Below the pieces are notes generated by a model. It had not been told where the DNA came from. It was given only the letters and a program-made list of their open reading frames with translations, and did not search any database. Of a stretch of DNA of 32,000 bases, positions 20,731-25,614 are shown piece by piece (the first letter of the stretch is position 1; each line of letters begins with the position of its first letter). Source of the stretch: Candidatus Harpocratesius repetitus (GTDB taxonomy: Archaea > Asgardarchaeota > Lokiarchaeia > Sigyniarchaeales > Promethearchaeaceae). The DNA lies in the NCBI GenBank assembly GCA_021498095.1, contig JAIZWK010000001.1:2280001-2312000 (forward strand), given 5' to 3'. A program made the position numbers and the translations under genes.

Positions 20731-23700
20731 GTCCATACGCCTACGCTGCATAGTGGATGTCTCGGCTTAGTATCTGATGAAGGGCGTGACAAGCTGCGAT
20801 AAGCTCCGGGTAGGTGCACGTAACCGTTGATCCGGAGATTCCCGAATGTGACATCATGGTTAGGGTAATGCCTTTCCATCCCCTTTAGGGGAGGGGAACG
20901 CGCTGAAGCGAAGCATCATAATAAGCGCAGGAAAAGAAAGCAACTGCGATTCCGTGAGTAACGGCGAGCGAAAACGGATGAGGTCAAACCGAATCCGCCG
21001 GTGAAAGTCGGTGGAGATGTGGAGTGTGGACTCGTGTCGAGCCTCCGTGAAGAAATTGAACTTTTCTGGAATGTTAGACCATAGAGGGTGACAGTCCCGT
21101 AAATGTAATTCACGAGGTTTATGGCGAGTATCCCGAGTAGCACGGGATGGTTGTTCCGTGTGAATATACCTGGTACCAACAGGTAAACCTAAATATAAGC
21201 TAAGACCGATAGCGTATTAGTACCGTGAGGGAAAGATGAAAAGCACCCAGGAATGGTTGTGAAAAGTGCCTGAAACTATGCAGTGAAGAGTGAAGCGGTC
21301 TGAAAGAAATAATGCTTTCCGAAGTTCGTACACGTGAGTGTGGTAACGAGGAGAGCGGATCAGGATTGCTTCTTTATTCTCGAAACATTAGCCAGGGAGC
21401 TTATGTTAGTGGCGAGATTAAGGGGATCACCCCCGAAGTCGCAGGGAAACCGATACATTCGCAACTTCATTAGAAGTGAGGAATGCGGTGTGAAAGCGCC
21501 TATAGTCACTGATGTAATGCCCGAAGTCGGACGATCTAGGCCTGGTCAGGGCGAAGTGCGGGGAAACCCGCATGGAGGTCCGATATCGTTCTGACGTGCA
21601 ATTCGTTGAGTTGAACTGGGTCTAGGCGGAAAAGCTAAATCTAGTCCGAGGATGGCTGGTTCCCCTCGAAGCTGCTCAAAGGCAGGCCTCATACGAGAGT
21701 GATTGTGGTGTAGAGCACTAATTCGCTTGGTACGGGGAGTAAAATCCTCGCCGGCTTCTTAAACTCCGAAGCTGCAATCCTTGTAGACTATGGGAGACGG
21801 CTTACCCGCGGTAAGCGTGGGTAGCGAGAGAGAAACAACTCAGACCTCGGTTAAGGTCCTAAAGTGTAGACTAAGTGTTAAACCGAATGGCGTCATTTTT
21901 CGAAGACAGCAAAAAGGTAGGCTCAGAAACAGCCACCCTACAATGAGTACGTAACAGTTCATTTGCTAAGAAAAATGGCCCAGAAAATGGACGGGGCTCA
22001 AGTCTACCACCGATACCGGGGGGCATACTCAGGAGCGAGTATGATCCGGTAGAGGGGCGTGGGGCTCGAGATAAAGTACGGCCGTAAGGTCGTATGAATC
22101 GTGCTCCAGTGCAGATCCTGGCAGTAGTAACAGCTGAGATACGTGAAAATCGTATCCGCCGAAAGGCCAAGGGTTTCTTGGCAATACGTCGTTAGCCAAG
22201 AGTTAGTCGTTCCTAAGGTCATTCTTAACCGTCTTGACCGAAAGGGAAACAGATTTATATTTCTGTACTTGGAAGCTAGGTATTCGGCGACGAACGGGAG
22301 ATTGGTGACGGAAGTGGATAGTTCGAGCGGGATTGTCGTTCCCGTTTAAATGTATAACTCTGGGATGTGCCTTTGCGGCGAGAACCAGACTAAAGCATGA
22401 ATAGCCGCCTTACTGTGGGCGGTTCGAGACGATTCCAATTCCCAATGAAAAGCCAATCTTCAACAAACTTCTAAGACGTACCCAGAACCGACACAGGTGT
22501 GCCCAAGGTGAGAAGCCTCAGGCGTGTGGAATTACGGGTTGTTAGGGAAATCGGCAAAATGGAGCGGAACCTTCGGAAGAACGCTTGCTTGGAGCCTTTG
22601 CGAAAGCGGGGGGCTCTAAGTTGCAATAACTAGTATCACCCGACTGTTAAATACAAACATAGCTTTCTGCAAGACCGAAAGGTTGTGTACAGAAAGTGAA
22701 TCCTGCCCAGTGCAAGTCAGTCAAAACCGGGTCCAACCGGAATAAGCTCTTGTAAACGGCGGGAGTAACTATAACTCTCTTAAGGTAGCCAAATGCCTTG
22801 TCGTATAAGTAACGACGTGCATGAACGGACCAACGCGGTGGTAACTGTCCCAACATCCTACTCCGTGAACCTACAGGACGGCGAACGGTCCGTCACGCAC
22901 CGTTGGGAAGAGAAGACCCCATGGAGTTTTACTGCAGCTTGTTCTTGACATACTCTGTTACATGCAGAGTGTAGCTGGGAGCGTCGATGCTATGCTTTCG
23001 GGTGTAGCGGAGCGACAATGGAACACCAGCCTTGTATCGGGGCATGTCTAACTCGCGAGTCGCTTGCGAGGACAGGTGCAGGTGGGCAGTTTCGGTGGGG
23101 CGCCAGAGCTTGGAAAAGATATCCAAGCTACCCTAAGGTCAACTCAACCGGGACAGAAATCCGGTGAAGAGTGGAAAGGCAAAAGTTGGCCTGATGGAAC
23201 CCTTGACAGCAAGGGGTTCCAAGACGAAAGTCTGGCTTAACGATCTTTCATTAACCTTTGGTAGGTGGTGGAAGTGATAGAAAAATTACCCTGGGGGTAA
23301 CAGAGTTGTCGCAGGCAAGAGTTCATATCGACCCTGCGGCTTGCTTCCTCGATGTCGGCTCTTCCTATCCTGGCCATGCAGCAGTGGCCAAGGGTGGGGC
23401 TGTACGCCCATTAAAAGGGAACGTGAGCTGGGTTTAGACCGTCGTGAGACAGGTCGGATTCTATCTAACGGTGCTGTTGGGAGTTTGAGAGCAGCGTGCG
23501 TCCAGTACGAGAGGAACAACGCGCGGTCGCCTCTGGTGAGGGGTTGTTCGACAGAGCATGCCCCACAGCTACGCGGCAAATCATAAACGCTGAAAGCATC
23601 TAAGCGTGAAGGATGCCTCGAAACGAGACTCCCATTCAAGAACACGTGCAGATTGTGAGATTCTTTTTGCCGAAAGGATCTTGTAGCATTCTGCGAACGG

Positions 23701-23832
23701 GGACTGGCGACAGTAACCGTAGTTCAAGACGAGCTCACCGGTAAAAGACCGGGTAGGTGAGTCAGGCGGTGTAAACACGGAGCATTTGCGACGTGCGTAG
23801 CCGGCCGATCTCAATAGAGCGAGTGTTTGGAC
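20731..23832 (+). rRNA. rrl: 23S rRNA (archaeal, ~3100 nt)
   Basis: AGTGGATG..CTCGGC..GATGAAGG.CGTG 5' region, CCTCGATGTCGGCTC PTC, AGTACGAGAGGAAC sarcin-ricin loop. Ends set by helix-1 pairing GTCCATAC (20731-38) with GTTTGGAC (23825-32). Confidence 0.97.
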
Positions 23833-24120
23833 TGGAAAAGGAACATATGGGCCCTGGCTTTGAGTCAGGACTCCAGAACGCGCTATGAAATTAACTACAA
23901 AATTTTGTCATGGGAAAAAAATCATATCAATCGGCGTGAATATGGATCAACGACATTTGTCACGGAAATGAAGTATTCCATTCCTTGATTATGATAAATA
24001 AATGAAGTCCTTTAGAAAGGACTGAAGTTGTTATGCACAGATGGTCGGTAAGTAAACGACCCCCAAAAAGGAATTTAAGTTGAATAGAAGCGAGATCAAA
24101 TGGAAGGATAATAAAAACCA

Positions 24121-25614
24121 ACTCTGGTTGATCCTGCCAGATCCGACTGCTATCCGGGTAAGACTAAGCCATGCAAGTCGAATGGAGTGGCTGCACTCCA
24201 TGGCATACTGCTCAGTAACAAGTGATCAACTTACCCTTTAGTGGAGCATAACCTCGGGAAACTGAGGCTAATACTCCATAGTTGAAAATGCCTGGAATGG
24301 TTTTTCATCGAAAGATACATTGAAATGTCAATGATTCGCTAAAGGATAGGATCGCTCTCGATTATGGTTGTTGGCGAGGTAATGGCTCACCAAGCCTATG
24401 ATCGATAAGGGCCGTGAGAGCGGGAGCCCTGAGATGGACACTGAGACAATGGTCCAGGCCTTACGAGGCGCAGCAGGCGCGAAACCTTTACCATGCACGA
24501 AAGTGTGATAAGGTTACCCGGAGTGCCCAGAGAAAAACTGTGGGCTGTTATAGGTGTGTAGATAACCCTATGAGAAAGGAGAGGGCAAGGCTGGTGCCAG
24601 CCGCCGCGGTAAAACCAGCTCTTCAAGTGGTCGGGACTTTTATTGGGCTTAAAGTGTCCGTAGCCGGTTTGGTAAGTTCCTGGTTAAATCTGACAGCTTA
24701 ACTGTCACTTGGCTAGGAATACTGCCTTACTAGAGGGTGGGAAAGGTTTGGGGTACTCCAGGGGTAGCGGTGAAATGCGATAATCCTTGGGGGACCACCA
24801 GTGGCGAAGGCGCCAGACTGGAACACGCCTGACGGTGAGGGACGAAAGCCAGGGGAGCGAACGGGATTAGATACCCCGGTAGTCCTGGCTGTAAACGATG
24901 CGTGCTAGGTGTTGGTAGGGCTATGAGCCGTATCAGTGCCGTAGGGAAACTGTTAAGCGCGCCGCCTGGGAAGTACGCTCGCAAGAGTGAAACTTAAAGG
25001 AATTGGCGGGGAGCACCACAAGGGGTGAAGCCTGCGGTTCAATTGGACTCAACGCCGGGAAACTTACCGGGGGCGACAGCAGAATGAAGGTCAGGTTGAC
25101 GACCTTACCAGACAAGCTGAGCGGAGGTGCATGGCCGTCGCCAGTTCGTGCCGTGAGGTATCCTGTTAAGTCAGGCAACGAACGAGACCCACACGCCTAG
25201 TTGCCAACGAAAGCCTACGGGTTTGTCGGGAACGCTAGGTGGACTGCCACCATATAGGTGGAGGAGGGAGTGGGCCACGGCAGGTCAGTATGCCCCTAAT
25301 CCCCGGGCCACACGCGGGCTGCAATGGTATGGACAATGGGTAGCAACTCTGAAAAGAGAAGCCAATCTCGAAACCATATCTCAGTTGGGATTGACGGCTG
25401 TAACTCGCCGTCATGAACGTGGAATCCCTAGTAATCGTGTGTCATCATCGCACGGTGAATACGTCTCTGCTCCTTGCACACACCGCCCGTCGCTCCATCC
25501 GAGTGTTATATGGTTGAAAATGGGTCCTTAGGGTTCATTTGAAATCGTGTAGCGCGAGGAGGGAGAAGTCGTAACAAGGTAGCCGTAGGGGAACCTGCGG
25601 CTGGATCACCTCCT
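24121..25614 (+). rRNA. rrs: 16S rRNA (archaeal, Lokiarchaeia-like)
   Basis: ACTCTGGTTGATCCTGCC start, GTGCCAGCCGCCGCGGTAA, GGATTAGATACCC, AAGTCGTAACAAGGTAGCC, GGATCACCTCCT anti-SD end. Confidence 0.98.

Follow-up and report, generated by a model that had tools for sequence, protein, structure and literature searches.

The window, a 32,000-nt stretch of the Candidatus Harpocratesius repetitus genome (C1:2280001-2312000 of a single 4,361,485-bp sequence whose one 10-N gap lies far off), carries a ribosomal RNA (rRNA) locus in which a complete 23S gene is followed by a complete 16S gene on the same strand, the reverse of the canonical archaeal operon with 16S upstream of 23S. Judged from the sequence, the most probable explanation (roughly 0.6) is that this is a secondary locus formed from two stand-alone units of the Lokiarchaeia type, a 23S unit that has lost its terminator being fused to a 16S unit that has lost its promoter, and that the two genes are co-transcribed. 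Read-through from 23S is expected because the 16S copy lacks the promoter of the family and the 23S copy lacks a T-tract terminator. The evidence comes from the limits of homology to the unlinked rRNA genes of the same genome, from recurrence of the locus in a second species and a second genus, and from family-wide alignments of the regions on either side of the joint.

Results

Two complete rRNA units meet at a seamless joint

Full-length, co-oriented matches to the archaeal 23S and 16S models were obtained at the Rfam gathering thresholds (Table 1). They confirmed the 23S-before-16S order proposed in the sequence-only reading, with coordinates that agreed within 2 nt. The GC content rises from about 30% in the surroundings to about 50% across the two genes. 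The spacer between them (23835-24120) measures 286 nt instead of the 288 nt given before, and the accompanying claim that it contains neither tRNA nor 5S held: ARAGORN detected no tRNA in the whole 32-kb window, and a permissive Rfam scan (E<=1) detected no 5S or other Rfam family in 23800-24150.

The genome contains 23S and 16S genes in two copies each and a tandem of three 5S genes. The primary pair consists of a 16S gene at C1:724577-726072 (+) and a 23S gene at C1:802841-805945 (+), with 77 kb between them. The 5S genes, the only ones in the genome, lie head to tail at C1:1399892-1400758 with a period of about 375 nt, about 0.9 Mb from the window locus. BLAST comparison showed that positions 20507-23922 of the window are 99.5% identical to the unlinked 23S unit and positions 23923-25661 are 99.1% identical to the unlinked 16S unit. 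The two homology blocks meet at 23922/23923, with no gap, overlap or microhomology between them.

The locus is genuine and is kept in at least two genera

An identical joint, base for base, is present in a metagenome contig from the Joint Genome Institute (JGI; Ga0164311_10018557, L037, 4039 nt) that is 96.5% identical to positions 20600-24636 of the window. This contig was found with a gapped pattern in which 50-80 nt separate the 23S trailer from a 16S leader motif; the exact 32-nt joint pattern gave no match in metagenome or genome contigs. Over 2617 nt, L037 shows 100% identity to contig C35 of G002, a genome from a different species of the same genus, and C35 has its 23S gene behind XerA and the dehydrogenase, as the window does.

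The arrangement also recurs outside the genus. Ca. Lokiarchaeum ossiferum (L. ossiferum; G010, a single 6,035,313-bp contig) carries two 23S-then-16S loci with 588-nt spacers in addition to an unlinked pair whose genes are 78 kb from each other. Collinearity between the window locus and one of the two 23S-then-16S loci extends over about 15 kb of upstream sequence, and a pair of genes for an OGG-type glycosylase and XerA lies upstream of the secondary locus in both genomes. XerA alone (its glycosylase neighbour unchecked) was located upstream of the 23S gene of the sister species and of an rRNA-free site in G011, the third closed genome of the family. G011 has the unlinked pair only, and no rRNA gene was present within 13 kb beyond the dehydrogenase of its XerA-dehydrogenase region. 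In a BLAST search over 400 Asgard genomes, 23S-16S adjacency occurred, among the matches listed, only in this genome and L. ossiferum. The reversed order is thus not unique to this genome: at least two genera have it at a secondary locus, and it is absent from G011.

An assembly artefact, in which 23S and 16S repeats had been wrongly joined, was considered since both parts are repeats within the genome and one scaffold gap exists elsewhere in it. However, the joint sits at the ends of the repeats and not within shared sequence, and it is reproduced to the base in an independent metagenome contig of a different species, while the same order appears twice in L. ossiferum. An artefact is therefore highly improbable, as the earlier reading had argued on other grounds; the 23S-16S locus is genuine and is kept in at least two genera as a secondary locus.

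A further metagenome-assembled genome (MAG) of the same genus, G001 (L015, G001:C11:12000-26000), contains a single assembled 16S gene that is flanked on the left, promoter included, as in the primary locus, and on the right (methylase, Hsp90) as in the window locus. This gene is probably a short-read chimera through a collapsed repeat rather than a real recombinant, and it was not used as evidence.

The joint removes a terminator and a promoter

Alignment of the sequences preceding 16S in eight genomes of the family revealed two conserved TATA elements in front of every stand-alone 16S gene, one of the TTTAAATT type (P1) and one of the TATATTTT type (P2). The end of P2 lies about 23 nt ahead of the position that matches the start of the 16S block of the window. 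The 5S promoters agree with this geometry, each 5S gene being preceded by TTTAAATA at -30 to -23. The spacing of P2, together with the geometry of the 5S promoters, indicates that the 16S block begins approximately at the transcription start. In the window copy, 23S trailer stands in the place of the P1/P2 promoter.

The other side of the joint shows a corresponding loss. The unlinked 23S copy has T5 runs at distances of 8 and 19 nt beyond the homology block, and the window has the 16S block in their place. The + strand of the spacer holds neither a T5 run nor a terminator-like site. The sole terminator-like site on the + strand of 20200-26000 is the hairpin at 25625-25644 with its T-rich tail, which follows the 16S gene.

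This anatomy suggests the following course of expression. Polymerase would start at one or more 23S promoters, upstream of or within the 23S leader, would meet no T-tract in the 88-nt 23S trailer, and would read into the 16S leader and gene until it stopped at the hairpin and T-tract at 25625-25661. The 23S rRNA would be excised via the long leader-trailer helix, and the 16S rRNA would mature from the downstream (3′) part of the same transcript. Both the read-through transcript and its share in mature 16S are what we infer from these signals.

Several points weigh against a single 23S-to-16S transcription unit. The only clear promoter element of the 23S gene is the TATA box TTTAAATT at 20616-20623, which lies inside the leader; this box agrees with those found at the 5S, tRNA-Ala, and 16S genes in the same genome. 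Factor-dependent termination that needs no T-tract may occur after 23S. A TATA-like box specific to this type of locus, created by a GG-to-AT change and kept in two species, points to a possible internal promoter that may provide part or even most of the 16S transcription. Moreover, the near-identity of the copies is no proof of expression, because gene conversion alone could maintain it.

A TATA-like box in the 16S leader

An AT-rich segment at 23990-24003, to which the sequence-only reading had drawn attention, turned out to be real and specific to the window-type locus. Here, a GG-to-AT change at 23994-23995 and nearby changes have converted the family-conserved GGGAAA into the TATA-like GATAAATA. 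The second species has GATAAATTAAAA at this box, which differs from the canonical 16S P1 box by one mismatch over 9 nt. The GG-to-AT change is common to both fused loci of the genus, and it is found neither in three stand-alone leaders of the genus nor in the leaders of L. ossiferum, G011, and G013. It persists in the two species even though leader sites on both sides of it have been homogenised within each genome. The leader hairpin at 24007-24022 shows compensatory changes in the second species.

These observations raise the alternative of two adjacent genes with separate promoters, in which a new promoter in the 16S leader (box 23990-24003, start near 24024) drives 16S and read-through from 23S is minor. 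The creation of a TATA-like box from a family-conserved sequence, its close match to P1 in the second species, and its restriction to the fused loci among the compared leaders, where it is kept despite genome-specific flanking sites, all speak for such a promoter; so does L. ossiferum, which has retained the 16S promoter and does not have the GG-to-AT change. However, TATA-likeness in 30%-GC DNA is weak evidence, and a start near 24024 would omit the conserved leader hairpin. In addition, nothing in the spacer seems able to halt polymerase coming from 23S, so that read-through is still expected. We consider separate promoters with minor read-through rather unlikely, although a new internal promoter is the main rival, or else a complement, to co-transcription from 23S. 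Between the two possibilities set out in the sequence-only reading, a co-transcribed operon or separately promoted neighbours, the anatomy favours the former; a second, internal start may exist, and the TATA-like box at 23990-24003 may add to 16S transcription.

The 23S unit contains its own predicted processing helix

The leader and trailer of the 23S gene form a helix of 77 predicted intermolecular pairs, the outermost of which join 20536-20551 with 23900-23915, and this helix lies wholly inside the 23S block. Its outer part is kept in L. ossiferum and is altered on both strands between the genera. Beside helix 1 of 23S, the predicted helix has bulges at 23845-23848 and 20724-20725, without the clean 3-4-3 form of a bulge-helix-bulge motif. 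Pairing between the 16S leader and trailer amounts to just 21 short AU-rich predicted pairs. The 16S trailers of the family consist of a covarying hairpin and an oligo-T tract, and they do not covary with the leader. Of the processing stems that had been assigned to each gene, the one around 23S is therefore supported, whereas no convincing stem was found for 16S.

The secondary copies are almost identical to the primary genes

Between the secondary and the unlinked 23S genes there are 5 substitutions and 1 homopolymer indel. The mature 16S has no substitution in 1494 nt and two 1-nt deletions in homopolymer runs, at about 25007 and 25300, while the 16S leader differs from the primary copy by 11 substitutions, spread over 23956-24113 (5.6% divergence). 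The single-base indels at 25007, 25300, and 22609 set this copy apart from the primary copies and from all relatives; all three lie in runs of G or C, and one strikes the universally conserved GGCGGGGGAGCAC stretch of 16S. These indels are probably uncorrected nanopore errors and not real mutations. The published Ca. Harpocratesius repetitus FW102 sequence is a nanopore/Canu assembly, pilon-polished, in which two contigs were scaffolded into one (PMC8813620). The same paper reports two complete 16S/23S sets with 16S copies 99% identical, and nothing further on their arrangement (PMC8813620).

The state of the 16S copy bears on a second alternative, in which it is silent or decaying, its promoter lost and its similarity kept only by gene conversion. 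The absence of the canonical promoter, two 1-nt deletions where the mature 16S is universally conserved, an Rfam score 15 bits below that of the primary 16S, and the 5.6% divergence of the leader would fit such a copy. Both deletions, however, fall in G and C homopolymers and, if the genome is that of FW102, which was assembled from nanopore reads (PMC8813620), are probably sequencing errors. Furthermore, the mature 16S is free of substitutions over its 1494 nt, and a second species, about 96% identical here, has kept both the fused arrangement and the leader hairpin. We regard a silent 16S copy as improbable.

In two genera, the blocks of near-identity have the shape of transcripts: they extend approximately from the start of transcription as far as the terminator, whereas the promoters upstream of them can still be aligned but have diverged. 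This was observed by comparing window 20507-25661 with C1:724379-726118 and C1:802621-806033, and with L008 1-5910. Homogenisation seems, from these borders, to be restricted to transcribed DNA. Gene conversion with the primary copies is the best explanation for how the window locus has stayed nearly identical to them.

The locus was assembled from unlinked units

Synteny indicates that the unlinked arrangement is ancestral. All four flanks of the primary pair are syntenic between this genome and L. ossiferum, and the three that were fetched are also syntenic with G011. Moreover, a genome from another family of the order has a 16S gene, about 75 kb, and a 23S gene on one strand. The classical spacer tRNA-Ala seems to have stayed with the unlinked 16S under a promoter of its own, as tRNA-Ala(UGC) is located at C1:726165, just behind that gene.

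The intervening segment, C1:726073-726240, runs from the unlinked 16S through a hairpin and T5 tract to the TATA box TTTAAATT and then to tRNA-Ala(UGC).

The blocks in L. ossiferum have the same borders as those in the window within a few nt, and about 240 nt lie between them, including an alignable, diverged copy of P1/P2. Similarly, the sequence directly before the 23S block of the window is homologous to, but diverged from, that preceding the unlinked 23S. Since diverged promoter homologues lie outside the blocks, complete stand-alone units must have been copied together with their promoters and placed next to each other. The transcribed parts would then have been homogenised with the primary genes, and the piece between the blocks would later have been lost in this genus. 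The three genera are unresolved in the 16S tree, so a single gain followed by one loss is not separable from other histories.

Three other origins were considered. The secondary locus as a relic of a canonical operon was excluded by its wrong order and the absence of tRNA-Ala. Tandem or segmental duplication of the 81-kb region from 16S to 23S was unsupported, as no protein paralogy exists between any of the primary and secondary flanks. Circular pre-rRNAs have been reported in Asgard archaea (PMC12918454); an origin of the locus from such an RNA was rejected, as the units contain more than the processing helices enclose and a diverged promoter persists in L. ossiferum.

Features of the locus and neighbouring genes

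The coordinates of the locus and of its synteny anchors are given in Table 1.

Table 1. Annotated features of the 23S-16S locus and of the upstream synteny anchors (window positions)
Feature	Position	Strand	Details
23S leader (5′ external spacer)	20507..20728	+	222 nt; start of the block 99.5% identical to the unlinked 23S unit
23S leader elements	outer helix 5′ strand 20536-20551; TATA box TTTAAATT 20616-20623; inner helix 5′ strand 20667-20727	+	cofold, family alignment
Complete 23S rRNA gene, secondary copy	20729..23834	+	Rfam RF02540 LSU_rRNA_archaea, 2546.5 bits, model positions 1-2987
23S trailer	23835..23922	+	88 nt; helix 3′ strands 23836-23915; ends 7 nt past the outer helix
Joint	23922..23923	+	last base homologous to the unlinked 23S unit, then first base homologous to the unlinked 16S unit
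16S leader	23923..24120	+	no family P1/P2 TATA boxes; TATA-like box 23990-24003; conserved hairpin 24007-24022
Complete 16S rRNA gene, secondary copy	24121..25614	+	Rfam RF01959 SSU_rRNA_archaea, 1457.3 bits, model positions 1-1478
16S trailer	25615..25661	+	hairpin 25625-25644, then T-rich tract; end of the homology block
OGG-type DNA glycosylase and XerA-type tyrosine recombinase genes	5925..7890	-	synteny anchors for the position of the locus

Directly behind the 16S terminator lies a gene for an N4/N6 DNA methyltransferase (25725-26474, -; PF01555), and no restriction partner was identifiable by Pfam among the neighbouring open reading frames scanned. It is followed by a gene for a 764-aa Hsp90-family protein (26810-29104, +; PF00183, E 7e-112) that is kept in the sister species. 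This protein gives a single whole-length alignment to eukaryotic cytosolic Hsp90/HSC82 and aligns to bacterial HtpG in two stretches; its origin may be eukaryote-like or bacterial.

Discussion

Unlinked rRNA genes are documented in Asgard archaea (Juttner & Ferreira-Cerca 2022, PMC8997704; Brewer et al. 2020, preprint 10.1101/705046). The genome studied here keeps such a pair in its typical form, 16S-tRNAAla, 77 kb, and 23S, with flanks that are syntenic across the family, and the units of the window derive from it. In contrast to that pair, the window genes are 286 nt apart and in reverse order, a spacing within the 1500 bp that Brewer used to define linked genes (10.1101/705046). Like the canonical archaeal operon, 16S-(tRNAAla)-23S-(5S), the locus has two full-length rRNA genes and a long processing helix around 23S. 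It differs in its reversed order and in having no tRNA or 5S in the spacer, tRNA-Ala being found behind the unlinked 16S with its own TATA box.

The closest relatives of the locus are those of L. ossiferum, which share the order 23S then 16S on one strand, the blocks with borders within a few nt and, for one of the two loci, the syntenic position. They differ by about 240 extra nt that hold a diverged double-TATA 16S promoter, the piece lost in the window. The L. ossiferum genome paper describes two rRNA copies 'in operons', with the gene order unmentioned (PMC9834061). Outside the archaea, reversed 23S-5S-16S operons were reported as novel from three genomes of SR1 bacteria (Camanocha & Dewhirst 2014, PMC4192840). 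These resemble the window locus in having short spacers and the large-subunit gene ahead of the small-subunit gene on one strand, but they are bacterial, have 5S between the genes, and represent the operon order of those genomes. In the window locus, by contrast, 5S lies elsewhere, the genes form a second copy beside an unlinked pair, and processing of the archaeal type is expected. No report of the 23S-16S order in archaea or Lokiarchaeia was found in the literature.

We tentatively propose, with slightly less than even confidence, that the locus represents re-linkage after ancestral unlinking, in which a two-promoter state like that of L. ossiferum became a single reversed 23S-16S unit through an exact loss of terminator plus promoter. 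A new TATA-like box may be evolving in the leader, and the transcript-shaped blocks hint that homogenisation could be transcription-coupled or RNA-templated.

Such a locus bears on methods as well as on RNA biology. Amplicon methods that read across 16S, the internal transcribed spacer (ITS), and 23S in that order would miss or mis-score loci of this kind. It also raises the questions of whether a reversed 23S-16S precursor is made and, if so, how it is processed by machinery that normally meets 16S first.

The finding also touches an argument on eukaryote origins, which holds that Asgard rRNA genes are mostly unlinked and eukaryotic ones linked, re-linkage being judged very unlikely (PMC8997704). 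The same review knew of no natural case of linked rRNA genes from an unlinked ancestor (PMC8997704), and it did not cover this genome or L. ossiferum. The window locus indicates that physical re-linkage occurred within Lokiarchaeia and that one lineage then lost the internal terminator and promoter. If true, it would provide a natural case of re-linked rRNA genes in Asgard archaea.

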